DNA of 64,000 nucleotides from an uncultured Chlamydiae bacterium (GTDB lineage: Bacteria; Chlamydiota; Chlamydiia; Chlamydiales; JAJFMA01), in the NCBI GenBank assembly GCA_963713615.1, contig CAVQMM010000001.1, positions 2,336,001 to 2,400,000 on the forward strand, in the 5' to 3' direction. The translations under genes and the position numbers were made by a program. The notes beneath the pieces were generated by a model that saw only the letters and a list, made by a program, of their open reading frames with translations, ran no database searches and had not been told where the DNA came from. This document shows, in pieces, positions 7,089 to 64,000 of the stretch. How positions within the stretch are numbered: the first letter of the stretch is position 1; each line of letters begins with the position of its first letter.

Positions 7089-7295
7089 GATGAAAGGATC
7101 GATTCTTTTCGGAAAAAAGGTTACCCTTTTTGCGAGAAGGCGATTCTAGAGAGCTCAGCTGGCATGCCATTATCTGGTCTGGAGACACAGGTTTTTACCC
7201 CCTCCTAGGCCCGATATTGCAACAGGCCAAGATATCGCCCCATAGGCCTCAACCAAAGCCCTCATAATCGTATCTCGGCGCGCAGCGCTTTGGAG

Positions 7296-9178
7296 CGGAA
7301 GTTCACCCCTGTTTTTGAAAAAAACACCTACCTAAAGTGTTGATTTTTCGAGCTTTTAGAGGCCTTTTCTTGTCCTGTGTTTAGTGACTACATTACTTGT
7401 GGCCACCTGGATTTGCTTTGGCATGGTAATTTGTAGAGCGCTCAAAATGTTAGTGGCCTCCTTGGAGGGGGCAGGGATCATTTCAATGGTCACCGCATCT
7501 GAGCACTTTATTGAATTTTGACATATAAGGCCTAACACTCGCAGGGCCTCTTCTGCAGTCATATTTACTTCAGCTAACCTTGAACGCAGCTCTCTTACAA
7601 TCATATGAGCCAGCATAGTGATAAATATGTGCCCCTTGGTGCTCTCTACTGTTCTTACATAAATCGGCCTGATTTCCAAAAAATTGCTCTTGAAGGTTCT
7701 GAAATCATCCTCAACGTATTTTAGGTCTTTGTATCGTTCGAAAATTTCTAGGTCAGAAGCTTCTTCCTTACCTAATTCCGTTGTCCATACGTAACAACCG
7801 TCAAACTTAGATTTTTCTTTTAGCCGCTCCTGGTCGATCTCTAAACGTAATTGCCTTTTTTCGACGGAAACACTGACCCACTCTGCAATGCATAGTTTTT
7901 TTAGATATTGTCGTATTCGATTCTTTGCCAACACCGCTGACATTGTAGGCTTAGACTCAAGTTTTTTGTTTTCTTGATCCACGCGCCTTTGAGCGGTAGA
8001 TAGGCGTTCTTCTCTTTGTGATTGGGTTTCTAAAGCACGTCCAGGATTGCGCCGATAGATGTATCTCTTGCCTTCAAGACAAATCGATTGAAGATCTTTC
8101 GTGAATGTATCCAGACAAAGAATCTCTGCGCCTATTAGCGATTTCATCTCAGGAAGAGTCAAGGCTGTGACATATCCAAACCCGTATTCCTTTAGCAATA
8201 GCTTCTGCTTGTTCCGAATCATTCCTCTATCACCAACTAGGACAACGTTCTTGCAGCCAAATCTGGCTTTAATTTTGTCTAACTGATTTTGAAAAGCTCA
8301 GAGTGTCCTGGGTATTGCCTGCAAAGGCCTCGACGGAGACTGGCATTCCATTATTGATGCTTAACAGCCCTATAACGACCTGCTTCTTTCTTTTCTTCTT
8401 GTCGCGGTTGTGTCCATAGGCAGCCAAGGCATTTTGCGTGCCCTCAAAGTATGAGCTTGTTACATCGTACCAGTAAAATTGCCCAGAATAACGCCTAAGC
8501 CTGAAAAGCGAATTCTCAATGGAACTTTGATTTTTGGCTACCCAATGCAGGCTTTGATAAAAGTCATTTTCATCAAAACCTGGTTGAGGTTGATTATGGA
8601 GGCAATATCATAGATTAGGACCAGTCTTGCCGCCGACAGGCGAGAGCCTTGCTCAAGAATCCTTGCGAAGACAAGCCAAAGGATAAGTTTAGCGTGGAAA
8701 CTATCACCTAGGGCTTTTGTGATCCCAAGACTGTCTGCCAATTGCTTTAGAACGAACACTCCTCCAACTGATCTGCCCTGAACAATGCTAAAACTGTCCT
8801 TGGACAAGATTGTAGGATTGTCCTTATGCATTTTTCAGACCTAGCCTAATAGCCTCAATATCACTCTTAGAACACCCTGAAAGATTAGCCAGTGTGCGGT
8901 TTTTAACCTTTGTGCCCTCTCTATATGATTCACGAAGCAAAATAGACTGGTAAACCTTTCCAAGAATTAACATTGGACGTTGATTTTGCAATGTACATAC
9001 AGTTTCCATCATATAACTGGACTACATTATACGCATAATAAATATATCTACAATATATTTTAGATGATATTTGAATAATTATTTTAGTGACTACATTTTT
9101 TCGGAAAAATAGTGATGCAAAGCATTTATATTCATCACAATACGATCAAAGTAGTGGGGAAATTAGGGTGAACTTCCG
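7296..9178 (-). mobile_element. IS1634-family element, copy 1 (transposase frameshifted)
   Basis: Terminal inverted repeat CGGAAGTTCACCC; TTGGAG duplicated at 7290-7295 and 9179-9184; nearly identical to 51913-53790 apart from small indels. Confidence 0.92.
7356..8996 (-). pseudogene. IS1634 transposase split into three ORF pieces
   Basis: ORFs 8824-9012, 8538-8831 and 7356-8222 match parts of the 545-aa transposase. Confidence 0.8.
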
Positions 9179-9229
9179 TTGGAGTGCGGTCGCTCGCGAC
9201 GTAAGCGTCAATTGAGGCCATCTGGCGAT

Positions 9230-10773
9230 TTATTCGGCAGTGGGGGCTGATGAGGTGGATGAGGCCTTTGCTTGTCGCCTGGCGGCAGCCCAAGCGTCGG
9301 GCAGAAGCTCGTGAAGTTTTTGAGAATTATGGGCTGGCAGGCGCCTCATCACATCCTCTAGGTATTCGTGGGGGTTGACTCCTATCGCGCGGCAGGTCTG
9401 TACCAGGCTTAGCAGTACGGCGGAAGCTTCCCACCCTCCTCGCTTCCAATAAACATCCAGTTCTTGCGGCCAATAGCTAGAGGGCGTATCGCTCGCTCCG
9501 CTACATTGTTGTCGAGACGCGCAAATGCATGTTGGGTGTAGTTTTTCAGATGGGGAATTAAGCTGCAATAATAGCCTAGAGCCTCCCTTAGATTCGATTT
9601 GGGAAGAGCCTTGCCATTAACCAGCCGGTCCTTGATGCGTGCAGTCAGCTCATCTATTATTGGAGCTTCTTTCTCTTGTCTTATCCGCAGACGTTCCTCT
9701 GGAGAACGTTCCCAAGCAACTCTCTCTAACATAAATAGATATTTTATCTTGCGCAGTACCCAGCTAACAAATTTTTTATCGCCACCTACAGCGTCGAAAA
9801 ACTTGCGCCGAATGTGACTCCAGCATGGACACCAAGTGAATTGCTTCTTATTAGCCAGTGCTTCATAGGCTCCATATTTATCCGAATGGACAACACCTTT
9901 ATATCCAGCTAGTATTTCCACAGCATGCTTGTGGCAGCGGTCCGTGCGAAAATGATAGACTCGATAAGGCGGATTTTTTTCCTGCCCTCCAACGATCACC
10001 CACATAAAAGCCTGGTGCACCTTTCCCTTACCAGGGACAAGCATGTCCACAGGAGATTCGTCCACAAAAACATTGTTGCTGCTGAGCACGCGAGCAATCA
10101 TTTCTTCATATAGCGCCTTTAAGGCATATCCACAGCGCATTACCCACTTGCAAAGTATTTGTCGGCTGATGAGAATGCCCTCGCGAGCTAAGATTTCCGA
10201 TTGACGAAATAAAGGAAGGTGATCGGCGAATTTTTTCACGATCACACTGGCTAAAAGACTCTCATCGGCTTGACAGCGAGGAAAAATGCTATCTGGTAAA
10301 TCTGCGATAAAAACGCCCTCTTCACTATGTGCTCTACATGCATACTTGGGACGTACTAGCTCCTTGACGTAGTAGCTACCTGGCGTATGCGCTATTTTGT
10401 GAGTGACTTCTTCGCCAATTTTGACGAGGGCTTCACCCGTTGTAGGGCAAACTTTTTGATCCTCTGGCAAATCTAAAATACAGCGTTGAACGGGAATATT
10501 GTCTGGAAGCGTAATTTTATCTTTGCCATTGCGCCCCTGCTTAACCCGTCGATGAGCAGGCACATTTATTGTCTCTTTTTGCTCTTCGGAACCAAGATTT
10601 TCGAAACCTTCCAGGTAGAGTTGTTGACCGCCATCGTCGACTACTTTTTCCGAACGTTTCCCAAAAATCTGACGCCTAAACCATTCAAGCTGCTCCTTGA
10701 GAAAGCTATTCTCATTTCGCAGGGAATAAATTTCCGATTGAAGCTGTTCTAGTGATAGTGTTGAGGTTTCCAT
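9230..10773 (-). pseudogene. tnpC: IS66 transposase TnpC, frameshifted near the C-terminus
   Basis: FGKRSEK, DHLPLFRQ, CWSHIRRKF and DNNVAERAIRP motifs; tail SLVQTCR..GVNP..YL lies in another frame (9230-9568). Confidence 0.85.
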
Positions 10774-10855
10774 ATGCTCTAAATCATATCACAGACCCCC
10801 TCTATTATCAAGTATTTTATCTAATAAAATGCACATTGTTTTTAGGATTTTAGGC

Positions 10856-11437
10856 TCAATGACTACTCTCCAACAACATTAGAAATTCTCGACGATCGAT
10901 AGCGGAATCTGGAATGCTTCCATTGCGAAAACTTCCTTTTTCAAGTCGCTTGTACCAGACGGCATGACCATTACCATCCCAGTAAAAGACCTTCACTAGA
11001 TTTCTACGACGATTTAAAAAAACGAAGTAGGCCCCGCAGGTAAATTCGCCCGAGAACGAACTGTCAACAAGATTGCTCAAGCACTCAAATCCCTTTCGCA
11101 TATCGATCGGCTCTTGATAGAGAAAGACACCCTTGTTTTTCTGATATGACGACCTCAGAGTTTTGCTCGCAGACTTTAGGGTTAGATAGACGCTCTTCTG
11201 ATCAAGCGAAAGCTTGAGCTCGGGCAGGGTAATGTCTATCCAACCCGTCGAGGAAATGTGGTCGGGCGGGCTAACTTTAAAGCGTTGGTACCAGTACAAG
11301 AGCTGCTGGTAGCTTATATTGTTCTCTAGGCACCACCTGCGGCCACTCTGACCGCTCGCCATCCATTGGTCTATGCGTCGAGCCCACTCAGAACGCTTCC
11401 TTTTGAAATCCATTAGTATCTCCATGGTTAGGGTCAT
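10856..11437 (-). CDS. IS66 accessory proteins TnpA and TnpB in one frame
   Basis: N-terminal SGQSGRRWC..YW HTH segment joined to IDMRKGF..FLNRRR..YWDGNG..KRLEKG. Confidence 0.75.
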   Translation of the reverse strand: MTLTMEILMDFKRKRSEWARRIDQWMASGQSGRRWCLENNISYQQLLYWYQRFKVSPPDHISSTGWIDITLPELKLSLDQKSVYLTLKSASKTLRSSYQKNKGVFLYQEPIDMRKGFECLSNLVDSSFSGEFTCGAYFVFLNRRRNLVKVFYWDGNGHAVWYKRLEKGSFRNGSIPDSAIDRREFLMLLESSH

Positions 11438-11779
11438 GGAGAAAACTTAGAACCTCGCGGAATTACGAAAAAGGTGGCTTCAATTGACGCTTACCTCGCG
11501 ACCGCTTTGGATTTGGGTGAACTAGGCATTGCAAGAAACGTAACCTTTCGCTCTAGGGGTAACTGTGGGGGTTTAAGCCTCCAAAGAACGGTGCGCGATT
11601 CAATAGGCTCGCCCAAATCCAAAGCGGTCGCGAGCGACACGCACTCCAAAGCGCTACGCGCCGAGTGATGTAAGGACAAGCCTAAAGGGCCTACGGGGCG
11701 ATGCCCTGACCTTTACCTCCTTTGATCCTTTAGTCCATTCGCGTAAACTCTCCTTTTCCGTGATAAAAATATTTCACAG

Positions 11780-11809
11780 TTGACCCCATGTAAGTATTTG
11801 AGGTATAAT
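11780..11809 (+). promoter_or_regulatory. Candidate sigma70-type promoter
   Basis: TTGACC-N18-TATAAT about 50 bp upstream of the ORF at 11861. Confidence 0.45.
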
Positions 11810-11860
11810 CGTTCGCAGGTTTAAAACTGTCCCATTGATTCAAGACAAAAGAGAGGCATT

Positions 11861-14921: not shown

Positions 14922-15104
14922 GGATTACAAACTCAACAATCTGAAAACGATAACTATACATCAGCAAGACAAAGGTTTTCAATTCAGTTCGTGTTCGGGT
15001 TACCCACAGATCGAGGTGCAAGAAAATCCCCGTTTTAGGTTATTGTAGCGAGCTGTGATAGTCGGGGCAATCGTGCGATTACCGCCTCGACGATATCGCA
15101 ACCA

Positions 15105-16586: not shown

Positions 16587-16753
16587 GTATACCACACTCG
16601 GTCATAAATTTGGAATTTGGACCGCGCCAAAGCCCCACGATTCAACGATCGCAAATGGGTCCATATTTTCTAATATTGACCCATTTGCGATCGTTGAATC
16701 GCGGGAGCTTTCGCGTGGGCCCAAATCCAAATTTATGACCGAGTGTGGTATAC
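16587..16753. repeat. Palindromic element B (MITE-like)
   Basis: GTATACCACACTCGGTCATAAATTTGGA and its reverse complement at the ends; inner CGATTCAACGATCGCAAATGGGTC arms. Confidence 0.88.
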
Positions 16754-18348: not shown

Positions 18349-19929
18349 CTATAAGTGGGCCCCATTTTCTAGCAGATATTTGATAACAAGTTCATTGGCC
18401 CCTTTGACAGCACCTGAAAGAGGACTCGGCGTTGTTTCAAGCCTCGCTTTGTTATCGATAAATAGCTTGACCACTTCCAAGCGACCGGCCAGCGCAGCCA
18501 TATACAGGGGCGAGCGACCTAGGTTATCCACAACATCGATCGGGGCTCTACTTGTTACCAAGTCCTGTACCACAGGTAGCTTGCCAGTGCTAGCAGCATA
18601 GTGAAGAGCTGTGTCTCCAAGGTTATCAGCGGCAAAGAGATCGGCATTTTTGGATAACAGGTAATCGATCATTTCTACAGTACCACGAGAGCTGCCAGCC
18701 GCTAACATCAAGGGCGTAGCTCCCTTACCATTAATCGTATTTATAGCTGCCTGACCCTGTTCGATCAAAAACTTTACGGAATCCAAGTCATTATTCGCGG
18801 CAGCTAAGTGTAAGGGAGTATTTAAGTCAGGACCCGCCCTAAGGTTAGTCTGAGCACCACTTTGCACTAACAGAGCGACTACATCGAAGTAGTTGTTTTC
18901 GGCCGCCTGATGCAGAGGAGTGACACGAGCGGCATTTCGAGTATTCACAGCAACACCCGCTAGAATTAGCTCCATGGCCATTTCAACCTGATGATTGCTC
19001 AAAGCCACGCTCAGAGGTCTATCACCATTATTGTTCGGCACGTCAAGAGCTACCCTTCTGTCCAATAAAAAATTAAAGGCATCGGAATTTCCTGTTAAAA
19101 TCGTTATCTCTATTGGGGTATTTCCCTCAAAACCTGGTTTAGTGAGGCTAGCTCCCTGAGCTATCAGCAGGGCTGCAACATCCATCTGGCCATTTCTGAA
19201 AGCTGTATTGAGAGGTGTTTCCCCTTGAGACGTCATTGCATTGACATCCGCACCATCGCGGATGAGATAGCGCAATATCTCCAGGCCCTTTCCTCCCTTG
19301 TAAGAGTTGGTGATAGCCACCTCGATGGCCGTCTCGCCCTCACGAGAACGCTGATTAGGATTGATTCCCAAGCGTAGGGCTCTGATGACTTGATCTAGGC
19401 GTCCTTCCTTAACTGCCTCGATCAACAGAGAAGCGCGAAGAATGGGATGAAACTGCGGATGCCTTTGTTGCGGGGTGAAGTGCGGTTGAAGCTGCTCCTT
19501 GATCTGCTGTTCGATAAGCTGTTGCAGCTGGTTCACTGCAGGCTTAAGCGGTACTTTTATCGTTTTTGCAGTCTTCTGGGGCGTCTGACCCTTGTTTTTA
19601 TTAATTGTCTCCTGCAGCTGCTCTAGAGTCGACTGCGTAGCCTCCTGCGTCTCTCCCTCTATGACACCCTCTGGAGGCTGATAGGGAGTGATTAAGCCCC
19701 CTTGCGCTTCGCGCAATGTCTCCATTCGATTAGGTGGTGGAAGACGCAACTCGGGCTGTGTGGCATGCACCTTTTGCTGATACTGGTTCTGATAGTAGCT
19801 ATCCACTGCCGACGGTGTTTGAATCTGATCCTGCGGCTGATCGGCTAAAAGCTCGACGGTGGTGTTTGCCCTTAAGGTTGTGATTGCTGCCAAAAAGATC
19901 AAAAAATATCGCATGATCGCCATCATCAA
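18349..19929 (-). CDS. Ankyrin-repeat protein with N-terminal signal peptide
   Basis: Repeated G.TPLH.AA units; hydrophobic N-terminus; Q/P-rich linker. Confidence 0.9.
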   Translation of the reverse strand: MMMAIMRYFLIFLAAITTLRANTTVELLADQPQDQIQTPSAVDSYYQNQYQQKVHATQPELRLPPPNRMETLREAQGGLITPYQPPEGVIEGETQEATQSTLEQLQETINKNKGQTPQKTAKTIKVPLKPAVNQLQQLIEQQIKEQLQPHFTPQQRHPQFHPILRASLLIEAVKEGRLDQVIRALRLGINPNQRSREGETAIEVAITNSYKGGKGLEILRYLIRDGADVNAMTSQGETPLNTAFRNGQMDVAALLIAQGASLTKPGFEGNTPIEITILTGNSDAFNFLLDRRVALDVPNNNGDRPLSVALSNHQVEMAMELILAGVAVNTRNAARVTPLHQAAENNYFDVVALLVQSGAQTNLRAGPDLNTPLHLAAANNDLDSVKFLIEQGQAAINTINGKGATPLMLAAGSSRGTVEMIDYLLSKNADLFAADNLGDTALHYAASTGKLPVVQDLVTSRAPIDVVDNLGRSPLYMAALAGRLEVVKLFIDNKARLETTPSPLSGAVKGANELVIKYLLENGAHL

Positions 19930-26238: not shown

Positions 26239-26408
26239 GCGGTTCGTGAAAAATTTTTACGCAAAGGCGCAAAGAAGAGCTCACACTCTTGTTTCACGAC
26301 ATCATTTTAATTAATAAAGAATAAAAATTTCGTTGTAATTAATGACTCTGTGAATCACAAAAGTGACCTCTTCTTTGCGCCTTTGCGTAAAAATTTTTCA
26401 CGAACCGC
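26239..26408. repeat. Long inverted repeat (REP/MITE-like)
   Basis: Perfect 41-bp arms 26239-26279 and 26368-26408 containing CGCAAAGGCGCAAAG. Confidence 0.85.
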
Positions 26409-28146: not shown

Positions 28147-28585
28147 TTATATATTTCCTACTTGCATTTAAATCAAAGACAACTATATCATCATAAAAAT
28201 TTAAAAACAAGCTATTATATTTATTCTTTCTACCATCTTTATCCAAAAATATATTGATTAACAATTGTAAAAGCTTTCGTCTACCTGGCTATCTTTGACG
28301 CTTACCGTCTTATGGCAATCCTTCAGATCATCACTCGGTGCGTAGCGCTTTGGAGTCATAGGCATCAACTTAAGCAACTAACTGCGCCCTCACAATCGTA
28401 TCTCGGCGCGCAGCGCTTTGGAGTGCGTGTCGCTCGCGACCGCTTTGGGTTTGGGTGAGCCTATTGAATCGCGCACCGTTCTACGGAGGCTGCCCCCCCA
28501 CAGTTACCCCTAGAGAGAAGGGTTACGTTCTTGCAATGCCAACTTCGCCCAAATCCAAAGCGGTCGCGAGCGACGCGCACTCCAA

Positions 28586-30463: not shown

Positions 30464-30520
30464 CTCCAAAGCGCTGCGCGCCTATTTACGAAGTTAGTTG
30501 CTTAAGTTGATGCCTATGGC

Positions 30521-49489: not shown

Positions 49490-49535
49490 TGTCAAGGCTA
49501 AGTAGAAATAGAGACATTTCTACTTAGCCTTGACA
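49490..49535. repeat. Perfect 20-bp-arm hairpin upstream of Rhs B
   Basis: TGTCAAGGCTAAGTAGAAAT-AGAGAC-ATTTCTACTTAGCCTTGACA. Confidence 0.8.
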
Positions 49536-49619: not shown

Positions 49620-51878
49620 CTAGGGAATGACTGCTGCGCACACCAATTCCAAGTCACTACCCTCGAGACGATAGCGCTCTCCTGTCACCGGACACTCGGC
49701 TTCACGATCATGCCCCTCAGGGAGGCTCGCAGGCAGCTCAAGACGTTCTCCATGACGGCTAACCCATCCTTCTTGACGAGCCGGGTTGCCATAAACCAAG
49801 GCATAGGACTTCACATCCTTTGTGACGACCGTACCAGCCCCCACCAAACAATAAGCGCCTAGCTCAACTCCACAAACAATCGTCGCATTCGCCCCAACAG
49901 TAGCTCCTTGACGTAAAATCGTAGGAAGAAATTCGTCTTTGCGACTCACCGCACTTCTAGGATTCAAAATATTGGTGAAGACAGCGCTAGGACCGATGAA
50001 GACATCATCTTCACAAGATACACCCGTATACAAGCTGACGTTGTTCTGAACCTTTACATTGCGCCCCAAAGAGACTCCAGGAGATATCACAACATTCTGC
50101 CCTAAATTACAGCAAGGGCCCACACTAGCGCCCTTCATGATATGACTGAAATGCCACACCTTGGTGCCTGGTCCCACTTGAGCTCCTGCATCCACCACAG
50201 CGCTAGGGTGAATGAAAGTCTCCTCAAAGCTAGGAGCATGCTCACGGCGTATAGGAAATTTGGAGGCTCCGTCGTCATCCATGCTTTGCTGCGCGGCCTC
50301 AAAAATGCGCTGTTCCACCAAGAGCTCTCTTTCGTCGTAGATGTGCTCGATGCGTTTTAAGGGCATCCTTTGACCTGTAGGGAGATCGATGTATCCCTCA
50401 ACGATGGTTTGAGGGAATCCTACAGCCCGTCCATCCAGGCGTGGAGTAATGCAGGTAAACTTCTGGCAGGTCACGCCGGTGTAGTCTTCTTTGGCTGCTT
50501 CGCAGCCATCATCCGTAAGAATTTCGACAAGAAGATGCTCTTCATTATAAGTGCGAAATTCTCTTTGGTAGATTTTAGAATGGTCTCCAGTAAGCCTAGA
50601 GGTTAGTAAGTTGGTTCCAGGTAGGTAAGCGCATTGGATGACCTGACCTCCAGTATGTTCTTCTCGGATGGGAAGATTAAAGCCATCGTTAGAATAGACG
50701 ATTAACCGCCTGAAACATTCCACGGATTCATTGGGACGATGATCGCTGCCTAGCTGAAAAGGTCCACGTCCAGAACCAGAGAGATCCCCATAAAGATCAT
50801 CCTGGATGACATTACCGAAGGAGTCGTAGCTGCCTGCATTGCAGCAGTAAAATTCTCCCTGAGAGTTCGTCACCCCTTTTGCCAGCAGGTTCCCAAGATT
50901 CTCTCCAGAGGTACCCCAAAAGAACTTTGTGGAGCAGTAGGGATGATAGTTGTTTTGATAAGTCATTCTTCCGCGACGTTGTCTAACAACGGCTCGGCTT
51001 GTCTCATACCTATCGATGGCGGTGATGCGCTTCTCTGGAGAGATGCGATAAACTGTGCGATTACTAAGCGCATCATCGACAACCGTGCTGTCATCGCTGT
51101 AGTGAAAATCTGCTATCAGCACCTCTTCTTTAGAATTCTCTTTTAGAGGTGCTTTTAAAGCATGTATTCTTCCTTCTTGGTCATTGTGGTAGTAAATAAC
51201 TAGGTAGCGGTCCTCTGGGCGCGAAATTCTTCGCAGCTTGAGATGGTACTTCTCTTCATTCTTGCCGACTTTATAGTGATAGTCTAAGCGCATCCAGGGT
51301 TGGTGAGAAGAGGTTATTTCCTTGACGAAAGATAAATGCCGGCGGAATTCGGGAGCCTTGCAGTGTTCGCCTCCGAGATGATAGCAGGTAAACTGTCCAT
51401 TGTTAGCGGATATAGTAAAATGACGGTAAGTATCCCTGCTGATGTCTGCTCTACCAAACATTAGCTTTCCCGTGGGACTCGTCAACCGTATCTTTGTTAG
51501 GAGGCTCAGGATGAAGTCGTCGTTGTACTCAAATATTCTCTGATTTCCGCCGGGTTGCAGTTCATTGTTCAGGTACCAATAGCAGTGTTCCTGTGATTGA
51601 TGAGGCAACCACGTATAGATACGCTGCATGCCTGAGCCAAAGAAGACCTGGCAGAGACCCCGATTGCGACATCTCCTCACGTTCGTTTGAGGGTTAAGAC
51701 CGGAAAATTGCAGTTTTCGATTCTTAACATGATGGGCCCCTTGAATCCCATCGCTGGAGTAATTGGTTTGTCCATATTTGGTATAGATCTCTGGATCCAC
51801 TGAGCTACTTATTGAAGTATCTGAGGGACTGAAGGGAGCTAGATAGCGCATGGAAGCCATAGGCATCAACTTAAGCAA
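49620..51878 (-). CDS. Rhs N-terminal/YD region fused to a WbpD/WlbB-type hexapeptide N-acetyltransferase
   Basis: First ~530 aa align to the Rhs A N-terminal region; C-terminus has FIHPSAVVD..VWHFSH..LGQNV..VKVQNNVS..FTNILNPRS..GNPAR. Confidence 0.85.
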   Translation of the reverse strand: MLKLMPMASMRYLAPFSPSDTSISSSVDPEIYTKYGQTNYSSDGIQGAHHVKNRKLQFSGLNPQTNVRRCRNRGLCQVFFGSGMQRIYTWLPHQSQEHCYWYLNNELQPGGNQRIFEYNDDFILSLLTKIRLTSPTGKLMFGRADISRDTYRHFTISANNGQFTCYHLGGEHCKAPEFRRHLSFVKEITSSHQPWMRLDYHYKVGKNEEKYHLKLRRISRPEDRYLVIYYHNDQEGRIHALKAPLKENSKEEVLIADFHYSDDSTVVDDALSNRTVYRISPEKRITAIDRYETSRAVVRQRRGRMTYQNNYHPYCSTKFFWGTSGENLGNLLAKGVTNSQGEFYCCNAGSYDSFGNVIQDDLYGDLSGSGRGPFQLGSDHRPNESVECFRRLIVYSNDGFNLPIREEHTGGQVIQCAYLPGTNLLTSRLTGDHSKIYQREFRTYNEEHLLVEILTDDGCEAAKEDYTGVTCQKFTCITPRLDGRAVGFPQTIVEGYIDLPTGQRMPLKRIEHIYDERELLVEQRIFEAAQQSMDDDGASKFPIRREHAPSFEETFIHPSAVVDAGAQVGPGTKVWHFSHIMKGASVGPCCNLGQNVVISPGVSLGRNVKVQNNVSLYTGVSCEDDVFIGPSAVFTNILNPRSAVSRKDEFLPTILRQGATVGANATIVCGVELGAYCLVGAGTVVTKDVKSYALVYGNPARQEGWVSRHGERLELPASLPEGHDREAECPVTGERYRLEGSDLELVCAAVIP

Positions 51879-51912
51879 CTAACTTCGTAAATAGGCGCGC
51901 AGCGCTTTGGAG

Positions 51913-53790
51913 CGGAAGTTCACCCCTGTTTTTGAAAAAAACACCTACCTAAAGTGTTGATTTTTCGACTTTTAGAGGCCTTTTCTTGTCCTGTGTTTAG
52001 TGACTACATTACTTGTGGCCACCTGGATTTGCTTTGGCATGGTAATTTGTAGAGCGCTCAAAATGTTAGTGGCCTCCTTGGAGGGGGCAGGGATCATTTC
52101 AATGGTCACCGCATCTGAGCACTTTATTGAATTTTGACATATAAGGCCTAACACTCGCAGGGCCTCTTCTGCAGTCATATTTACTTCAGCTAACCTTGAA
52201 CGCAGCTCTCTTACAATCATATGAGCCAGCATAGTGATAAATATGTGCCCCTTGGTGCTCTCTACTGTTCTTACATAAATCGGCCTGATTTCCAAAAAAT
52301 TGCTCTTGAAGGTTCTGAAATCATCCTCAACGTATTTTAGGTCTTTGTATCGTTCGAAAATTTCTAGGTCAGAAGCTTCTTCCTTACCTAATTCCGTTGT
52401 CCATACGTAACAACCGTCAAACTTAGATTTTTCTTTTAGCCGCTCCTGGTCGATCTCTAAACGTAATTGCCTTTTTTCGACGGAAACACTGACCCACTCT
52501 GCAATGCATAGTTTTTTTAGATATTGTCGTATTCGATTCTTTGCCAACACCGCTGACATTGTAGGCTTAGACTCAAGTTTTTTGTTTTCTTGATCCACGC
52601 GCCTTTGAGCGGTAGATAGGCGTTCTTCTCTTTGTGATTGGGTTTCTAAAGCACGTCCAGGATTGCGCCGATAGATGTATCTCTTGCCTTCAAGACAAAT
52701 CGATTGAAGATCTTTCGTGAATGTATCCAGACAAAGAATCTCTGCGCCTATTAGCGATTTCATCTCAGGAAGAGTCAAGGCTGTGACATATCCAAACCCG
52801 TATTCCTTTAGCAATAGCTTCTGCTTGTTCCGAATCATTCCTCTATCACCAACTAGGACAACGTTCTTGCAGCCAAATCTGGCTTTAATTTTGTCTAACT
52901 GATTTTGAAAAGTCAGAGTGTCCTGGGTATTGCCTGCAAAGGCCTCGACGGAGACTGGCATTCCATTATTGATGCTTAACAGCCCTATAACGACCTGCTT
53001 CTTTCTTTTCTTCTTGTCGCGGTTGTGTCCATAGGCAGCCAAGGCATTTTGCGTGCCCTCAAAGTATGAGCTTGTTACATCGTACCAGTAAAATTGCCCA
53101 GAATAACGCCTAAGCCTGAAAAGCGAATTCTCAATGGAACTTTGATTTTTGGCTACCCAATGCAGGCTTTGATAAAAGTCATTTTCATCAAAACCTCGGT
53201 TGAGGTTGATTATGGAGGCAATATCATAGATTAGGACCAGTCTTGCCGCCGACAGGCGAGAGCCTTGCTCAAGAATCCTTGCGAAGACAAGCCAAAGGAT
53301 AAGTTTAGCGTGGAAACTATCACCTAGGGCTTTTGTGATCCCAAGACTGTCTGCCAATTGCTTTAGAACGAACACTCCTCCAACTGATCTGCCCTGAACA
53401 ATGCTAAAACTGTCCTTGGACAAGATTGTAGGATTGTCCTTATGTTTCAGACCTAGCCTAATAGCCTCAATATCACTCTTAGAACACCCTGAAAGATTAG
53501 CCAGTGTGCGGTTTTTAACCTTTGTGCCCTCTCTATATGATTCACGAAGCAAAATAGACTCGTAAACCTTTCCAGACTTAGACTTGGACGTTGATTTTGC
53601 AATGTACATACAGTTTCCATCATATAACTGGACTACATTATACGCATAATAAATATATCTACAATATATTTTAGATGATATTTGAATAATTATTTTAGTG
53701 ACTACATTTTTTCGGAAAAATAGTGATGCAAAGCATTTATATTCATCACAATACGATCAAAGTAGTGGGGAAATTAGGGGTGAACTTCCG
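51913..53790 (-). mobile_element. IS1634-family element, copy 3 (1878 bp)
   Basis: Perfect 15-bp terminal inverted repeat; flanked by the two outer arm stubs of element A. Confidence 0.95.
51972..53609 (-). CDS. IS1634-family DDE transposase
   Basis: Same protein as 28767-30404 except K/R near the C-terminus. Confidence 0.93.
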   Translation of the reverse strand: MYIAKSTSKSKSGKVYESILLRESYREGTKVKNRTLANLSGCSKSDIEAIRLGLKHKDNPTILSKDSFSIVQGRSVGGVFVLKQLADSLGITKALGDSFHAKLILWLVFARILEQGSRLSAARLVLIYDIASIINLNRGFDENDFYQSLHWVAKNQSSIENSLFRLRRYSGQFYWYDVTSSYFEGTQNALAAYGHNRDKKKRKKQVVIGLLSINNGMPVSVEAFAGNTQDTLTFQNQLDKIKARFGCKNVVLVGDRGMIRNKQKLLLKEYGFGYVTALTLPEMKSLIGAEILCLDTFTKDLQSICLEGKRYIYRRNPGRALETQSQREERLSTAQRRVDQENKKLESKPTMSAVLAKNRIRQYLKKLCIAEWVSVSVEKRQLRLEIDQERLKEKSKFDGCYVWTTELGKEEASDLEIFERYKDLKYVEDDFRTFKSNFLEIRPIYVRTVESTKGHIFITMLAHMIVRELRSRLAEVNMTAEEALRVLGLICQNSIKCSDAVTIEMIPAPSKEATNILSALQITMPKQIQVATSNVVTKHRTRKGL

Positions 53791-53903
53791 CTCCAAAGCG
53801 CTGCGCGCCGAGTGATGATGATTGTGAGGTCCCATTGCATTCTCAATGGCTGGTTGACCCTGAGAAGACGTTACCGAAGATCTAATTTGGTCTAAAACGC
53901 CTT

Positions 53904-56343: not shown

Positions 56344-56591
56344 TCCTTCTGGAGCCTGAGCTCTACAAACAATTTCGGAATTTCTAACGCTTCTCCATTA
56401 CTGAACTCAACTAAATATAGTATGGATTGCATTGGTTGATCAAAAGCTTCGGATACTTGTGCAGATTCAATATTGCGAATACCACAAATACAGCCAATCT
56501 GACCGGGTTTGTAACGCTTAGGAGCATTGTGTCTAACCAGTATCGTATCTCCCCAACTAAGAATAGGATCTAGTGATTTATCGAAAGCCAT
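56334..56591 (-). CDS. Putative immunity protein for Rhs A (85 aa)
   Basis: Overlaps the Rhs A stop by 22 bp; AT-rich. Confidence 0.72.
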   Translation of the reverse strand: MAFDKSLDPILSWGDTILVRHNAPKRYKPGQIGCICGIRNIESAQVSEAFDQPMQSILYLVEFSNGEALEIPKLFVELRLQKEWN

Positions 56592-59500
56592 GGTGTGCCA
56601 TCTGGGTTAATGATTCCTGGAACGTGAGCATGTGGTTGCAGCGAACGCCGGTCAATATGACCCGGAGGACTATGACGACCATCTTTCCGCAAACCTGTTG
56701 GATTGCCTATATGGTCCCTGACTTGTACCCATTTACCATCCGGCGAGCCCGTTAAGTGTTCTCCCACTCTTACCGGTATAGTATTTCCGTTAGAATCCAC
56801 AATCATTACATCTATGGTGACGTTGCCGTTAAAGGGATTGGTGTTAGTTTGTGTTCCATTCCTGATAGGAATACCCGCCACGGATTCTGTTCTTTCGGCA
56901 ACTTGCCCACATTCTATCGAATTGCGGAAAACAGTTCTAGGAGAGTCAACCTTTGGAGTTTGTTGGATAGTTCTAAGGGCGATCCCCGTGGTTACTCGAA
57001 CCGGTGCAGCTACAAGGCGAAGAGCCGGAAAAGCCAACGCCGCCGAACACATTATGTTTGAGCTTTCATTCAGGCATTCTAGACAAAATGTCATCCTCTC
57101 ATACTCATCCCACTGACTCCAACTACTTTTAAAGCCCCGATAGCTCCACACAGCATCGCTGACCCAACTCGTTCCATAGTCTGGCGAGTTGGAATGGTGA
57201 TGATAGACAGTTCTGTTCCCGCTTGGTCCAGCAGAGCTGGTGCTGCTGCTGCCGCTTCGATCAGAATCTTCTCTGCTTGCGGACCTACAACCGACACTAG
57301 CTCTTGCATGCACTCCAGCCCTATTGCGGTCGTATAAGTTAGCCTTAAGCCCCCAGAGGTCCAAAAACATCAGGGGGCTGTTGTGGACATAGGCATAGAG
57401 ATTAGGCCCATCAGCGTAGCCTTGAGGGTCGGGAGTCAACCAACGCCCTAGATTACGGTCGTAGTCGCGTCGACCAAACTGAAATAGGTCCGTATGCGCA
57501 TCTAAACGCTTACTTGCAAAGAGCCAGGGATTGCCTACCAAGGATTGGTCTAAAGAAATGCCTTGATGGTCATAAAGAATGAATTCACCAAAGGCAGTAT
57601 AGCGATACCCTTCTACAACGTTGCCGGTTGTGCTGTCTATCAAGCAGCACACGTTGCCGCGATGATCGTGAATGGGTGCATAGATTTGCCCACGGAGTTC
57701 TAAAGCGATAGCGGCGCCTAGTTCCGCTCCTTGTCCGTGACCCAATACACGCAATTGATCGATATGCCCCTCACGAAGCATGCCAATCTCTTTTTGCCCT
57801 TGATACAAGTAAGAGACCGTTTCAGATTCGTTCCACTCACCATTCCAGGTACAAAGGGTTCGCGTCAGGCGTCTGCCAAACGCATCATAGCTGTAACGAA
57901 CTTGCCAAGCGTTTGGCTGCTCAGCAACAACCAGGCGATTTAAGGCATCATAGACATACTGGGTTGAGGCTTGCGGCGCATCCTTTCGGATGCGATTACC
58001 ATTTAAGTCATATGCATAGCTGGTCATTGAATCCGATGTAATCTGGTTTAAGCCATTCACTGCATAGGGTTGCATGTCCTTTTGAAGGCGATTTTGCAGC
58101 GAATCATAAGCATACGTATGCGTCAAAGGTCCATCTTCACCGATTAGCTGATAGAGGTCATCGTAGTGATAATTCTCAGTAATCGCTCCAAAAATGTCTT
58201 TCTTGTGAATACAACGCAGATTTCCCACGCCGTCGTATCCATCTGGAGGAATTTGTTGAGACCAAGCCTTGGTGATGATTTGAGTGTTACGTCCAAGAGC
58301 ATCCCACACGCGTTGCTGCTGACCTGCCGACCCGATCAGCTGCGCAGCAAGTTCACGTCCAGCCAAATCGTAATTCAAATAATGATGCTGATATTGAGAG
58401 TTCCCCTGAGTATCGTGTCGATCAATGGTACGGATTTCAAGGCCATTGTAGGTATATTCAATGCTCGAATGGTCAGGCAGAGACATGTTTGTTAGACGGC
58501 CTAATGAATCATAGGCATAGTGACAGATCATGCCATTCGCCAATTGATCGCTCACCATACGGTTCCAGGGATCGTACTGACGCCTGGTGGTGAGTTGGGT
58601 TGTTAGATCCGTCGTTTCAATCGGGTTGCCATGCAGGTCATAAACATAGCGATACGCAAGAGTATTGTCTGAGGAGGTGAGGGTCGCAAGTCGTCCTAGG
58701 GCATCGTAGGTGTGGTGCAAGGTAACCCCATCGGGCTTGGTGAGCTCTGAAAGGCGTCCATAGACATCGTAGGCATAGCTCGTGGCTTTGAAGAGCGCAT
58801 CGCCCTGCTCAAGCATTGTTAGGGGACGCTGCATGCTGTCGTATTCCCAGCTCACGATGTAGTCTCGGGAGGGCGTACCAAAGGTAATCACTTTCTCGCG
58901 CTGGCGGATTTTCTGCCCAACAGAATCATAACAGACTTCTTGTAAGGCTGTGGTAAGGCCTTTGACATTGCGTCTTTCGACACAGGCGACACGATGCAGA
59001 GCATCATAGGTCTCCACAGTCATGTTACCCAAAGGATCCGTGGTGGTTTTTTGCAGAACTTTCTGATTGTGTGCATTGCGATATTCATAATTATAGGCAA
59101 TCTGGGTGATGTTGCCTAAGGCATCAATCTGCTGGATGGGCATGCCATGCGAGTCATAGAGTGTTTGTGTGGTACTGCAAACATTCTCCGAAGAATAAAC
59201 GTGTGTTTGTGTTCGGTTGCCAAGTCGATCAAAGAGGTGGGTTTCTTTACGAAGGATTTTTCCTGAGGAGTCTTCAATGCGTGTCTCAATGACCCTATCG
59301 AGAAAATCGTATTCCTGGATTTGCGCGATGTAGTCAGGCTCGGCACTTCCAAAATACTGCCGAGTAGTCCTCAATCTTCCCAGAGAATCATAGGCGAAGG
59401 TGGATAGGCTAAATGCTCCCGTGCCCTCCTTGCGTTCATTTATTTTGCGTCCAGCGAAGTCGTACTCAAAGGTGGTGGAATAACCCAGAGCGTCAGTTTC

Positions 59501-62089
59501 CCTCGTGGGATGGGCTCCCGTATATTCCTTTTCAAGCGAGTATTGCAGAATACCCAGGCTGTCATAGGTATCGGTGCGAATCAGGCGACTAAACCCATCG
59601 TAGGTATAGTGATGACACAGTCCCTCTTTCTCCCATTTTTTTGCTAGGACTCCGTTGAGGTGATACTGACAGCGTTCTTGGGTTCCATCGGGATAGGTGA
59701 TGCAAACGGGCTGCCCCCGTACATTGTAGGAGGTGGTTGTTTTGTGCCCCTTTTGATCAATGACTGCTGTGAGCTGGTCAAGGACATTGTACTCCTTTCG
59801 AACCCAAGAGGGCTGGTATCCCTGTCCTAGTGTTGCACAGGGAGGATACTGGACCTCGATTTCTCTTCCAAACTCATCATATTTGAAGTGGGTTGTTGTC
59901 CCAGTGCCATCGGCATGTTCTGAACCGATGGAATTGTAGGACTCCACCTGAGCTATCCTGTTGCCCACAAGGTCATAGCAATATTCTGTGATAAAGCAGG
60001 GGCCATCATCATGTTTCTCGACCCGCTTAATGAGACGATCCATCAAATCGTATGAGAAGAGCGTATGGAATCCAGAACCCTCTAGCTTTTCACGGATTTT
60101 GTTCTTGTTTTCGTCATAGGCCATGGTGGTGGTTTGACCCAGAGCATCGGTCTGACGGATGAGATTGCGTTTGTTGTCATAGTCGAACGCTAGTGTGTAG
60201 CAAAACTGGTCGTTGGCATCGTAGAGGTCTTGGCGAATCAAGAGCTCGCTAGCGTTGTAAATGTTTTCAATGCGTCTCAGTTGTTTTTGTTCACCCGTGG
60301 TCAAGTCGAGGTAGCTTTCGATGGTTGTTTGCGGAAAACCCACGGCTGGAGCAGTAAGACGGGGCACGATCGTAGTGATTTTACGACAGGTAACATCAGT
60401 GAGATCCTCTTGGTGCGTGCCTGAGCCATCATCGGTGATCATTTCAATGAGCAGGTGATTGGAGTCATAAGAGCGAAATTCTCTCTGGTACCATTTTTGA
60501 TGGTCTCCAAGGAGTTTGGAGGTCAGCAGGTTTGTTTCGGGTAGGTAGGCCATGGCGATGACCTTGCCATCGCTGCATTCTTCACGCACAGGAAGATTGA
60601 AGCGATCATTGGAGTAGGACATTATTCGACTGAAGCATTCGACGGGTCGATCAGGACGATGGTCCGCCCTAAGTTCAAAGCTGGCATCGTTATTGCCAGA
60701 GAGATTGCCGTAAAAGTCTTCGCTGATGAGGTTGTTGCGATCATCGTATGCTCCTACAGTGATATATAGACAGGGATTTCTAGGAACAGGGATGAATAGG
60801 CCTTTGGCGAGTAGATTTCCTAAATTTACCCCCTCCTTGCACCAGTAATAACGCATGGTGGAGTAGTACTGATTGTGCCTCGTGAATTTATCGATCGCCA
60901 CGATCCGTTTTTCGGGTGATCTAGCGTAGGCGGTACGAATGCCATGGGCATCGTAGACGTCTGTATACGTATCCTTGTACTCAAACCTTGCTAGGGTGAT
61001 CCGTTTTTTCCTCTTAGGACCCTGGGGATAAGGAATCTGTAGATCGGACACCTTGCCATCTCCGTGGTAATTGATGTAAAGGTGATGATTCTCTGGCTTT
61101 TCGAGTTTTCGTAATTTGCAATAATACTCTGCTTCCGAATCGCTCGTCTTGTACTGATAGGTTAACGTCACTGGCGGTCCATTAGAGGGGATGATTTGCC
61201 GAATGAATGGGCAAGGTCCTCTTTCCCCCTTCTTCTTGTTCTTGCAGTAGATCGCTTCGATGACATAAGAAGTGGATAGGCCATTACTCGCTGTTACTTT
61301 AAAGCCATTGTCAACTTTGTCAACTTTGAGGGTATTGAAGGTTAGGTCGCCGTTCGCGTTGGTGCTTCGTATCTCAGTCAGGAGATTTCCAGAATCGTAC
61401 TCGAAATACCGCTGATGACCATTGGGCTGCGATTCATGCTTCAAGTACCACGAGCTATGGTAGTGGGTATCGTGTGATAGCCAAGAGTAGGTTCGGTGGG
61501 CTCCTGAGCCAAATGACATCTCACATTGACCGAGATTGCAGCATTTAGACGTGTTGAGGCGTGGGCTGAGTCCTGTGAAATGTAGCTTGATGTTCTTAAC
61601 GGTATCAGCGCCACAAATACCCCCGCCGGCATAATTGGTTTGACCATGTTTGGTGTAAATGGCTTCATCGACAGTCGCTAAAACCGCATCGCCGCCCAAT
61701 GACACGCCAAGGTACTTTGTAGCGGACCCTTCTCGCTCTTCTAAGAACACTTCATAAGGTCTATCTTTGATTCCTGAAGCGGATAGTCCACTCAGTTTGA
61801 GTGGAAAATCCATGCCGAAGCCATATCCATGAGGACTATGTGTGATATACTTACTCCTAGAAGAGCTGTCATAGCAATGTGAATAAAGCAGTGCGTTAGG
61901 ACCTTCTGTAGCTACCGTTGTATCGGAGAGAAAAAACTCACCTGTAATGACGTTTACACAGTCGTATACCGTGGCTAGGGGCAGCGCATCAGGGCCTAAG
62001 CGCATCTCCAAAGGTGGTTTTTCCTGAGAATATGTCGTTACAGAGCATGCCAAAAGGGCAATAAGTAGTAGACGAAGGATACGAAACAT
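56570..62089 (-). CDS. Full-length Rhs/YD-repeat polymorphic toxin A with signal peptide
   Basis: RBS GGAGG; MFRILRLLLIALLAC leader; many YD repeats; GRWLTPDP.G..DGPNLYAYVHNSP...DLWG; variable tip. Confidence 0.93.
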   Translation of the reverse strand: MFRILRLLLIALLACSVTTYSQEKPPLEMRLGPDALPLATVYDCVNVITGEFFLSDTTVATEGPNALLYSHCYDSSSRSKYITHSPHGYGFGMDFPLKLSGLSASGIKDRPYEVFLEEREGSATKYLGVSLGGDAVLATVDEAIYTKHGQTNYAGGGICGADTVKNIKLHFTGLSPRLNTSKCCNLGQCEMSFGSGAHRTYSWLSHDTHYHSSWYLKHESQPNGHQRYFEYDSGNLLTEIRSTNANGDLTFNTLKVDKVDNGFKVTASNGLSTSYVIEAIYCKNKKKGERGPCPFIRQIIPSNGPPVTLTYQYKTSDSEAEYYCKLRKLEKPENHHLYINYHGDGKVSDLQIPYPQGPKRKKRITLARFEYKDTYTDVYDAHGIRTAYARSPEKRIVAIDKFTRHNQYYSTMRYYWCKEGVNLGNLLAKGLFIPVPRNPCLYITVGAYDDRNNLISEDFYGNLSGNNDASFELRADHRPDRPVECFSRIMSYSNDRFNLPVREECSDGKVIAMAYLPETNLLTSKLLGDHQKWYQREFRSYDSNHLLIEMITDDGSGTHQEDLTDVTCRKITTIVPRLTAPAVGFPQTTIESYLDLTTGEQKQLRRIENIYNASELLIRQDLYDANDQFCYTLAFDYDNKRNLIRQTDALGQTTTMAYDENKNKIREKLEGSGFHTLFSYDLMDRLIKRVEKHDDGPCFITEYCYDLVGNRIAQVESYNSIGSEHADGTGTTTHFKYDEFGREIEVQYPPCATLGQGYQPSWVRKEYNVLDQLTAVIDQKGHKTTTSYNVRGQPVCITYPDGTQERCQYHLNGVLAKKWEKEGLCHHYTYDGFSRLIRTDTYDSLGILQYSLEKEYTGAHPTRETDALGYSTTFEYDFAGRKINERKEGTGAFSLSTFAYDSLGRLRTTRQYFGSAEPDYIAQIQEYDFLDRVIETRIEDSSGKILRKETHLFDRLGNRTQTHVYSSENVCSTTQTLYDSHGMPIQQIDALGNITQIAYNYEYRNAHNQKVLQKTTTDPLGNMTVETYDALHRVACVERRNVKGLTTALQEVCYDSVGQKIRQREKVITFGTPSRDYIVSWEYDSMQRPLTMLEQGDALFKATSYAYDVYGRLSELTKPDGVTLHHTYDALGRLATLTSSDNTLAYRYVYDLHGNPIETTDLTTQLTTRRQYDPWNRMVSDQLANGMICHYAYDSLGRLTNMSLPDHSSIEYTYNGLEIRTIDRHDTQGNSQYQHHYLNYDLAGRELAAQLIGSAGQQQRVWDALGRNTQIITKAWSQQIPPDGYDGVGNLRCIHKKDIFGAITENYHYDDLYQLIGEDGPLTHTYAYDSLQNRLQKDMQPYAVNGLNQITSDSMTSYAYDLNGNRIRKDAPQASTQYVYDALNRLVVAEQPNAWQVRYSYDAFGRRLTRTLCTWNGEWNESETVSYLYQGQKEIGMLREGHIDQLRVLGHGQGAELGAAIALELRGQIYAPIHDHRGNVCCLIDSTTGNVVEGYRYTAFGEFILYDHQGISLDQSLVGNPWLFASKRLDAHTDLFQFGRRDYDRNLGRWLTPDPQGYADGPNLYAYVHNSPLMFLDLWGLKANLYDRNRAGVHARASVGCRSASREDSDRSGSSSTSSAGPSGNRTVYHHHSNSPDYGTSWVSDAVWSYRGFKSSWSQWDEYERMTFCLECLNESSNIMCSAALAFPALRLVAAPVRVTTGIALRTIQQTPKVDSPRTVFRNSIECGQVAERTESVAGIPIRNGTQTNTNPFNGNVTIDVMIVDSNGNTIPVRVGEHLTGSPDGKWVQVRDHIGNPTGLRKDGRHSPPGHIDRRSLQPHAHVPGIINPDGTPWLSINH

Positions 62090-62119
62090 GGCCTTACCTC
62101 CAAAATTTTTACTTTGGAG

Positions 62120-62148
62120 AAGCTAATTTATTTGTTGATTGATGACAA
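62120..62148 (-). promoter_or_regulatory. Candidate promoter of Rhs A (same sequence at 49446-49474)
   Basis: TTGTCA-N17-TAGCTT on the minus strand. Confidence 0.35.
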
Positions 62149-62163
62149 GGGATTTTTTGTGGA

Positions 62164-62209
62164 TGTCAAGGCTAAGTAGAAATAGAGACATTTCTACTTA
62201 GCCTTGACA
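62164..62209. repeat. Perfect 20-bp-arm hairpin upstream of Rhs A
   Basis: Same sequence as 49490-49535. Confidence 0.8.
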
Positions 62210-62293
62210 GTTATTTTTTGTGGATCTGTGTGTTATTCGATGGTGTGTGTAGCACAAGACTTCTGCAAAAACCTTATAAACTCCATTCTATTC

Positions 62294-63772
62294 CTAGGGA
62301 ATGACTGCTGCGCACACCAATTCCAAGTCACTACCCTCGAGACGATAGCGCTCTCCTGTCACCGGACACTCGGCTTCACGATCATGCCCCTCAGGGAGGC
62401 TCGCAGGCAGCTCAAGACGTTCTCCATGACGGCTAACCCATCCTTCTTGACGAGCCGGGTTGCCATAAACCAAGGCATAGGACTTCACATCCTTTGTGAC
62501 GACCGTACCAGCCCCCACCAAACAATAAGCGCCTAGCTCAACTCCACAAACAATCGTCGCATTCGCCCCAACAGTAGCTCCTTGACGTAAAATCGTAGGA
62601 AGAAATTCGTCTTTGCGACTCACCGCACTTCTAGGATTCAAAATATTGGTGAAGACAGCGCTAGGACCGATGAAGACATCATCTTCACAAGATACACCCG
62701 TATACAAGCTGACGTTGTTCTGAACCTTTACATTGCGCCCCAAAGAGACTCCAGGAGATATCACAACATTCTGCCCTAAATTACAGCAAGGGCCCACACT
62801 AGCGCCCTTCATGATATGACTGAAATGCCACACCTTGGTGCCTGGTCCCACTTGAGCTCCTGCATCCACCACAGCGCTAGGGTGAATGAAACCCTCCTCA
62901 AAGCTAGGAGCATGCTCACGGCGTATAGGAAATTTGGAGGCTCCGTCGTCATCCATGCTTTGCTGCGCGGCCTCAAAAATGCGCTGTTCCACCAAGAGCT
63001 CTCTTTCGTCGTAGATGTGCTCGATGCGTTTTAAGGGCATCCTTTGACCTGTAGAGAGATCGATGTATCCCTCAACGATGGTTTGAGGGAATCCTACAGC
63101 CCGTCCATCCAGGCGTGGAGTAATGCAGGTAAACTTCTGGCAGGTCACGCCGGTGTAGTCTTCTTTGGCTGCTTCGCAGCCATCATCCGTAAGAATTTCG
63201 ACAAGAAGATGCTCTTCATTATAAGTGCGAAATTCTCTTTGGTAGATTTTAGAATGGTCTCCAGCAAGCCTAGAGGTTAGTAAGTTGGTTCCAGTGTTTG
63301 CGGATATAGTAAAATGACGGTAAATATCCCTGCTGATGTCTGCTCTACCAAACGTTAGCTTTCCCGTGGGACTCGTCAACCGTATCTTTGTTAGGAGGCT
63401 CAGAATGAAGTCGTCGTTGTACTGAAATATTCTCTGATTTCCGTCGGGTTGCAGTTCATTGTTCAGGTACCAATAGCAGTGTTCCTGTAATTGATGAGGC
63501 AACCACGTATAGATACACTGCATGCCTGAGCCAAAGAAGACCTGGCAGAGATCCCGATTGCGACATCTCCGCACGTTCGGTTGAGGGTTAAGACCGGAAA
63601 ATTACAGTTTTCGATTCTTAACATGATGGGCCCCTTGAATCCCATCGCTGGAGTAATTGGTTTGTCCATATTTGGTATAGATCGCTGGATCCACTGAGCT
63701 ACTTATTGAAGTATCTGAGGGACTGAAGAGAGCTAGATAGCGCATGGAAGCCATAGGCATCAACTTAAGCAA
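62294..63772 (-). pseudogene. Second, damaged copy of the Rhs::acetyltransferase fusion
   Basis: CAA>TAA at 63602-63604; in-frame 780-bp deletion at 63294/63295; acetyltransferase domain intact. Confidence 0.85.
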
Positions 63773-63796
63773 CTAACTGCACCCTCACAATCGTAT

Positions 63797-64000
63797 CTCG
63801 GCGCGCAGCGCTTTGGAGTGCGTGTCGCTCGCGACCGCTTTGGATTTGGGCGAAGTTGGCATTGCAAGAAACGTAACCCTTCTCTCTAGGGGTAACTGTG
63901 GGGGGGGGGCAGCCTCCGTAGAACGGTGCGCGATTCAATAGGCTCGCCCAAATCCAAAGCGGTCGCGAGCGACACGCACTCCAAAGCGCTGCGCGCCGAG
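63797..64000. repeat. Palindromic element A, uninterrupted copy
   Basis: Perfect 57-bp arms around a 90-bp core with a G run; outer repeat at 63752-63778. Confidence 0.93.

Follow-up and report, generated by a model that had tools for sequence, protein, structure and literature searches.

Introduction

Targeting of repetitive extragenic palindromes (REPs) by insertion sequences (ISs) is known from the IS3, IS110, IS4, IS256, IS5 and IS481 families. The elements named in the available part of one survey are IS1397, ISKpn1 and ISPsy8 (IS3), IS621, ISPa11, ISPpu9, ISPpu10 and ISRm19 (IS110), ISRm22 (IS4), ISRm5 (IS256) and ISNm1106 (IS5) (PMC1525189); an IS481 element of P. fluorescens SBW25 is named elsewhere (PMC11708052). 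De novo transposition into REPs, specified by the transposase, has been shown for IS1397 and ISKpn1 (PMC1525189). Here we describe an element of the IS1634 family, IS1634-A, in an uncultured Chlamydiae bacterium (GenBank assembly GCA_963713615.1), and a second element, IS66-A, that uses the same REP; the IS1634 and IS66 families are thereby added to those that target REPs. The analysis started from "the window", a stretch of 64,000 nucleotides (contig CAVQMM010000001.1, positions 2,336,001 to 2,400,000, forward strand), which holds three copies of IS1634-A. A first-pass annotation of the window had proposed that this IS is site-specific for a dispersed palindromic repeat, element A, which acts as its landing pad.

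Like the known REP-targeting ISs, of which all or most copies break the REP at one fixed position, IS1634-A is found at a single place in its repeat. The nearest described case is ISRm22, an IS4-type DDE element with 6-bp repeats and all copies in REPs; its copies without matching repeats are ascribed by the authors to recombination or adjacent deletion (PMC1525189), much as we propose below for one copy of IS1634-A. The position differs, however: the symmetry axis is the insertion point of ISRm22 and ISPsy8, whereas IS1634-A cuts at the tag at the foot of the hairpin. Further differences from the listed elements are the chlamydial host, the availability of an untargeted sister group, and the families themselves, IS1634 and IS66 being on neither list as far as the accessible text of the two sources goes. 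In comparison with the IS110 family, no RNA guide is evident, and the IS and its target share no match as long as 8 nt.

For the IS1634 family, the targets described in the available text are AT-rich tracts of 5-6 bp, or long variable repeats in the case of IS1549 and IS1634, and the terminal inverted repeats (TIRs) follow the pattern C-----YT (PMC2266710). ISPfe2 (1884 bp, 13-bp inverted repeats, 6-bp direct repeats; PMC3281130) and ISGka5 (6-bp direct repeats; PMC8024623) are reported with no specific site named in the parts available. IS1634-A agrees with this family in size, in its single long DDE open reading frame (ORF), in ends that start with C, in a YREK motif without R, and in its 6-bp duplication; it departs from the described targets by its use of one fixed hexamer of 50% GC within a REP. 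Our literature search found neither an IS1634 nor an IS66 described as targeting REPs, although subscription journals, ISfinder entries or supplements could hold one.

IS1634-A and its target site

The 3.97-Mb genome (G000) contains eight copies of IS1634-A, seven of full length and one without the first 1108 bp, and all eight adjoin the hexamer TTGGAG of element A. This repeat consists of two inverted, GGAG-tagged REP hairpins (a REPIN, in the usual term for such doublets), and each arm is composed of an outer part, TTGGAG, a single T, a GC-rich stem-loop, and TTT. A perfect 6-bp target duplication is present in six of the seven full-length copies. If about 400 arms are counted among 3277 TTGGAG hexamers, the probability of finding 8/8 by chance is 5e-8; it is 2.7e-5 if only five independent insertion events are assumed. 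Arms make up about 0.5% of the genomic YTNNAR sites. The same genome provides a control: only one of the nine copies of a second IS1634 type, IS1634-B, lies in a REPIN, and at another position, which speaks against survival bias and against REPINs attracting ISs in general.

The element measures 1878 bp, has 14-bp TIRs (CGGAAGTTCACCCC) and encodes one DDE transposase of 545 aa. It falls within the size range of the IS1634 family (1500-2000 bp, one ORF, TIR pattern C-----YT), and the transposase matches the family model NF033559 with 290.1 bits (cut-off 100). Residues D177, D255, Y421, E428 and K435 are invariant across 64 aligned transposases, and L424 takes the place of the R of the YREK motif, as expected of this family. 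The best fold match of the predicted structure (pLDDT 86) is Tn5 transposase (E-value 2.4e-6), with a structural similarity (TM 0.37) too loose for placing target contacts on the protein. The 6-bp duplication also lies within the 5-6 bp of the family. What sets IS1634-A apart is the target: instead of an AT-rich, non-specific site, it has TTGGAG in 8/8 copies. This fixed target is its novel trait with respect to the family, whose outgroup relatives keep a loose, AT-leaning site.

In the window, copy 1 (7296-9178, minus strand) is 1883 bp long and differs from copy 2 by several indels, its longest ORF (7356-8222) comprising 288 aa. To its left lies an outer REP arm (7274-7295, plus strand) that ends in TTGGAG (7290-7295), and to its right the duplicated TTGGAG (9179-9184) opens a plus-strand segment (9179-9200) with the 5' part of the REP stem-loop. 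Copy 2 (28586-30463, plus strand, 1878 bp, 14-bp TIR with one G>A at position 3 of the left TIR) carries a transposase gene at 28767-30404 (plus strand, 545 aa) with the NF033559 match, D177/D255/E428 and the Tn5-like predicted fold. Its host REPIN (28402-28585) has an intact left arm (TTGGAG 28418-28423), a spacer, and a right arm ending in CTCCAA (28580-28585); the duplicated CTCCAA (30464-30469) and the outer arm follow at 30464-30482 (plus strand). Copies 1 and 2 thus repeat the same 6 bp on both sides (TTGGAG/TTGGAG and CTCCAA/CTCCAA) and are oriented alike with respect to the arm, as the first-pass annotation had read them. This uniformity of orientation does not extend to the genome, where five copies point one way, two the opposite way, and copy 3 is a hybrid.

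Copy 3 (51913-53790, minus strand, 1878 bp, intact ORF 51972-53609) is flanked on both sides by outer arm: the left one (51894-51912, plus strand) ends in TTGGAG (51907-51912), the right one (53791-53812, minus strand) has CTCCAA at 53791-53796. The entire inside of the REPIN is replaced by the IS, and the target duplication is absent. Exact coordinates thus place every window copy at the hexamer of an arm, as first proposed. The empty element A seen at the end of the window was also recovered: the REPIN at 63797-64000 has inverted arms of 57 nt (TTGGAG at 63813 on the plus and at 63984 on the minus strand) that are 100% complementary, a spacer, and outer repeats that run past the window. The 261 nt from 63740 to 64000 fold at -100.6 kcal/mol (z -14.6), and none of 200 shuffles folds as well. 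Its left-hand neighbouring DNA and that of copy 3 are paralogues (99.5% over 2628 bp). The REPINs of the 64-kb window sit between ORFs of at least 150 aa.

Two findings had been named in advance as fatal to the landing-pad proposal, namely unrelated flanks at the other genomic copies and descent of all copies from one insertion by segmental duplication. The former did not appear, the flank being the same in 8/8, and the latter is contradicted. The seven copies with an inner flank lie in differing REP variants, subtypes or arms, and 350-1500 bp further out the copies have only IS66 or another 9-copy repeat in common; copies 2 and 3 agree over about 60 bp on the right side. Spread of one insertion by duplication is excluded by the two orientations, by the differences among the inner REP variants, and by outer flanks that contain no common non-repeat DNA.

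The truncated copy (G000:C1:3104660-3105429) has lost its left end but has kept the hexamer, and its arm also holds an IS66, as does that of copy 1. Among 341 intact arms, six show small duplications, all at the hexamer (C1:452537, 1244328, 3118150, 3191204, 3688201 and 3688400). At C1:109822 an IS-like end directly follows the same REP hexamer, with 13 of 14 letters matching the outgroup-type TIR CGGATGTTCACCCC; beyond this terminal repeat, the similarity of the remnant to IS ends is not significant (equal or better scores in 30 and 211 of 300 shuffles). In a further REPIN (C1:1373368-1373414), everything between the two hexamers is gone. In public sequencing data, 8 of 21 runs were examined for contigs crossing IS1634-A ends; the four that cross an end by at least 8 letters (X1, X2 twice, X5) all enter REP sequence, which carries little weight since they possibly stem from the source strain. 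These contigs are without the indels of copy 1, yet all copies are collapsed there, so that decay and assembly error are not separable. No relatives were found on viral contigs, nor on plasmids at an E-value of 1e-100.

Relatives of the transposase

We retrieved 160 loci of related transposases and built trees with FastTree, one on 88 of 289 sequences and a second on all 289. Only 26 of the 103 loci with both ends have matching hexamers, probably as a consequence of assemblies collapsing copies; unmatched ends were counted singly. The wider relatives possess CGGAWGTTC-like ends, and their junctions read NTNNAN, with T2 in 208/220 and A5 in 213/220, a rule to which TTGGAG conforms.

The window enzyme and five elements with readable flanks form one clade (support 99 in the smaller tree and 100 in the larger, where it has 109 members). 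All five relatives (46-64% identity) are inserted at WTGGAR, three of them in the same REP class and two in another hairpin repeat. The most distant one (L075 of genome G004, 46%) sits at ATGGAG of a 72-copy REP, in the same outer-outer layout as copy 3, and L148 (57%) lies inside a perfect REPIN with CTCCAA duplicated. The closest one, in genome G355 (64%), is found at ATGGAG of a REP family; this genome contains 151 occurrences of WTGGARTGCG versus 6 of controls, as well as a RAYT homologue (REP-associated tyrosine transposase; 48-57% identity) in two pieces at contig ends. The remaining two (L067 and L068 of genome G408; 55% and 52%) occupy the loop of another hairpin repeat, present in 48 copies, at TTGGAA-TG. 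This repeat (L275-L294) has TTGGAA or TCGGAA in its loop and hosts two distinct IS1634 elements; at least one empty copy (L294) has a doubled, scar-like hexamer.

Among 238 junction hexamers from outside the clade, 10 read WTGGAR, and inspection by eye revealed no REP at any of the eight loci concerned. Eight chlamydial outgroup loci (44-47% identity) have unrelated target sites, and the REP motif is not strongly enriched in three chlamydial outgroup genomes (11, 6 and 21 hits vs 7, 2 and 4 controls). A scan of 401 genomes of the phylum for the TIR pattern added one junction (that of G355), two other hits not being IS ends. The comparison modifies the target as first annotated: the hexamer stands, with TG(CG) after it, but the outer GCGCT differs among the relatives, whose common core is WTGGAR followed by TG. 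With 8/8 copies in arms here, and all five readable clade relatives at WTGGAR, the flanks extracted from this and the related genomes support the landing-pad proposal, and site-specificity would hold for a clade of IS1634.

The REPIN family and its RAYT gene

Systems of REPs or REPINs with a RAYT, also called REPtrons, comprise hundreds of short hairpins, mostly in inverted doublets, and a single gene for a Y1 HUH transposase between inverted REPs (PMC2817692, PMC3733652, PMC6006769); classes of RAYT with atypical feet have been described (PMC6006769). The accessible text of these three papers reports none from a chlamydial genome. Element A shares this layout. It supplies the most frequent 16-mers of the genome, in which 365 arms occur as high-copy hairpins, and 146 of the 178 plus-strand arms on contig C1 have an inverted partner at most 350 nt away. 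Six matches to Y1 transposases were found in the genome. Only one of them, the RAYT gene L006 (G000:C1:3256585-3257112; 176 aa; NF047646 with 83.9 bits vs a cut-off of 80), is flanked by inverted REPs, three on each side; the other five are without such flanks. The difference concerns the 5' tag, which reads TTGGAG-T instead of the canonical GT[AG]G at the hairpin foot. Because the layout matches in both respects, inverted hairpin doublets and a RAYT flanked by the same REPs, we classify element A and L006 as a REPIN family with its RAYT, of a non-canonical REP type, and the L006 product would act on the REPs of element A. A known RNA family was rejected for element A, the Rfam scan of the window giving no match.

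A second type of repeat occurs at about 20-29 sites of C1 (e.g. 1232060 and 1962530); it has the outer arm in common up to TTGGAG and continues with CCCCAACCGAC. None of these sites carries IS1634-A. Several further families of dispersed palindromes occur in the window (3896-4088, 16587-16753, 26239-26408, 49490-49535 and 62164-62209) and genome-wide, with 16-mers such as GAAGGGTCGATATTGC in about 255 copies; one of these families commonly wraps around element A.

IS66-A, a second user of the same REP

The arm hit by copy 1 contains a further element in its REP stem-loop, which the first-pass finding had not named: IS66-A (tnpA/tnpB/tnpC; 9201-11494, minus strand, 2294 bp). Its left 8-bp duplication is at 9193-9200, and the remainder of the doubly interrupted REPIN (11495-11665) includes the right 8-bp duplication, the spacer and the second inverted REP arm. 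IS66-A has 18 genomic copies, 17 of which are inserted, in both orientations, at one position of the REP stem-loop, 16 bp further along the REP than the site of IS1634-A; 16 of these 17 show the 8-bp duplication. The outlier has an 8-bp duplication too and lies in a partial linear match. IS66-A and IS1634-A use the same REP independently, and for both elements (8/8 and 17/18) nearly all copies are thus at one REP position, as in the REP-targeting ISs described before. Among IS66 homologues from 28 other genomes, no REP flank was seen by eye at any of the 21 loci with a readable end, and REP targeting within IS66 so far appears specific to IS66-A. The arm right of C1:2333292 has the 8-bp duplication of IS66 plus one base and no IS66, possibly an excision scar.

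Other elements of the genome and the window

The nine copies of IS1634-B (C1:1455832 and eight more) have the ends CCTCATTTCC and duplications of 5-6 bp, and one of them lies inside an IS66. A third IS1634, type C, is represented by a single long copy at C1:155648. In the window, RHS-repeat genes, duplicated and in fragments, form a cluster (30869-62089) in which one ORF (56570-62089) encodes 1839 aa with PF05593. The cluster is interleaved with ISs and with two hexapeptide-repeat genes (49620-51878 and 62294-63574) in a segmental duplication. The window also encodes an ankyrin-repeat protein (18349-19929), which reaches none of the curated effector cut-offs; a DUF562 protein is encoded at 26641-28146.

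Discussion

Why do eight copies of IS1634-A sit at the foot of REP hairpins? Judged from sequence comparison, the most likely answer (probability roughly 0.8) is that the transposase itself picks WTGGAR-TG and cuts with a 6-bp stagger. According to this model, the enzyme would select a site of about 8-10 bp, WTGGAR-TG(CG), whose near-symmetry at T2/A5 would fit the two insertion orientations. An ancestor with a loose T2/A5 preference (NTNNAN) may have narrowed it to such a site, which is concentrated in repeats, and may thus have gained intergenic landing sites by the hundred, most of them harmless. For copy 3, the best explanation is an adjacent deletion, or recombination of one arm with the other: an IS in one arm could have attacked the opposite arm, or recombined with a copy in it, deleting the inside of the REPIN. 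RNA-guided targeting of the IS110/IS1111 type was rejected; the longest match between IS and target is 7 nt, the enzyme is a DDE transposase, and the non-coding ends (181 and 59 bp) fold only weakly.

Several points weigh against this model. In this genome, linear motif and hairpin cannot be separated, since CG comes next in 382 of 485 TTGGAGTG octamers; by simple arithmetic, a plain reader of this octamer would be expected to give 8/8 about 15% of the time. The two elements in G408 hit the loop of another hairpin, not a GGAG-tagged REP. Readable flanks exist for just 6 of the 109 clade members, mostly in fragmented metagenome-assembled genomes and with one or two junctions each, the G004 element has a long branch (0.85), and all trees come from FastTree alone. 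Although clade-specific columns were found in the transposase alignment, none could be tied to target specificity. Finally, four of the six small arm duplications repeat 8 bp rather than 6 and may not be scars of IS1634-A.

What is harder to set aside is guidance by structure or by a host factor: a transposase of loose NTNNAN chemistry might be drawn by an extruded hairpin or cruciform, or by a bound protein (the RAYT or a host DNA-binding protein), and cut the nearest T-N-N-A hexamer. We regard this as rather unlikely, though several observations favour it. All six clade elements with known flanks are in palindromes, including the second, unrelated hairpin family of G408; the unrelated IS66 converges on the same hairpin, and two arms hold both IS1634-A and IS66. 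Moreover, the degenerate motif WTGGARTG is followed by CG in 408 of 1228 cases, and none of the eight copies is at one of the roughly 820 sites without it, an outcome that simple arithmetic puts at about 1.5e-4 for a degenerate reader. On the other hand, the hexamer remains WTGGAR even where its position in the hairpin changes from foot to loop, IS1634-B and other elements of the same genome are not attracted, no REP is obvious at the lone IS66 outlier, which lies in a partial linear match, and the match to the RAYT family in G408 is very weak (21 bits).

Very improbable is a history in which the IS inserted by chance once or twice and was then carried to its other sites by segmental duplication, by gene conversion, or by a REPIN that bore it and was moved by the RAYT. 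In its favour, REPINs are reportedly mobile, the empty site and copy 3 belong to one segmental duplication, and copies 2 and 3 have the short stretch of right flank in common. Yet no IS is present in the paralogue of the copy 3 site, and insertions at this same position recur in four other genomes or contigs whose REP sequences differ; the mixed orientations, the different REP variants, subtypes or arms of the seven copies with inner flank, and outer flanks with only other repeats in common speak equally against such a spread. Even less credit is due to survival bias, in which insertion would be random at NTNNAN and only harmless insertions into intergenic repeats would persist. The REPINs of the window are indeed intergenic, and in host-associated bacteria purifying selection acts against the disruption of genes. 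This does not account, however, for one identical base in 8/8 copies. Eight of the nine IS1634-B copies persist at non-REP sites, one of them within another IS, and arms are only a small share of the YTNNAR sites.

Beyond target choice by the IS1634-A transposase itself, a broader scenario can be put forward only tentatively, as we judge it somewhat less likely to be true than false. A whole clade (109 of 289 sequences) of single-protein, Tn5-like transposases may have passed from loose NTNNAN insertion to specialization on palindromes, reading WTGGAR-TG only in hairpin context and following two unrelated repeat families across chlamydial hosts, with IS66 converging on the same REP. If true, such a clade of palindrome specialists would represent a traceable natural path to site-specific DDE integration without an RNA guide or targeting subunit. 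The relatives form matched pairs: closely related elements that agree in their ends and in the 6-bp stagger have loose NTNNAN targets in some cases and fixed WTGGAR-TG targets in others, which makes the gain of target specificity by a DDE transposase directly testable. For the chlamydial host, the analysis documents a REPIN-RAYT system that holds 25 insertions from two IS families, and these insertions bear on a possible role of REPINs as IS sinks and rearrangement hubs.

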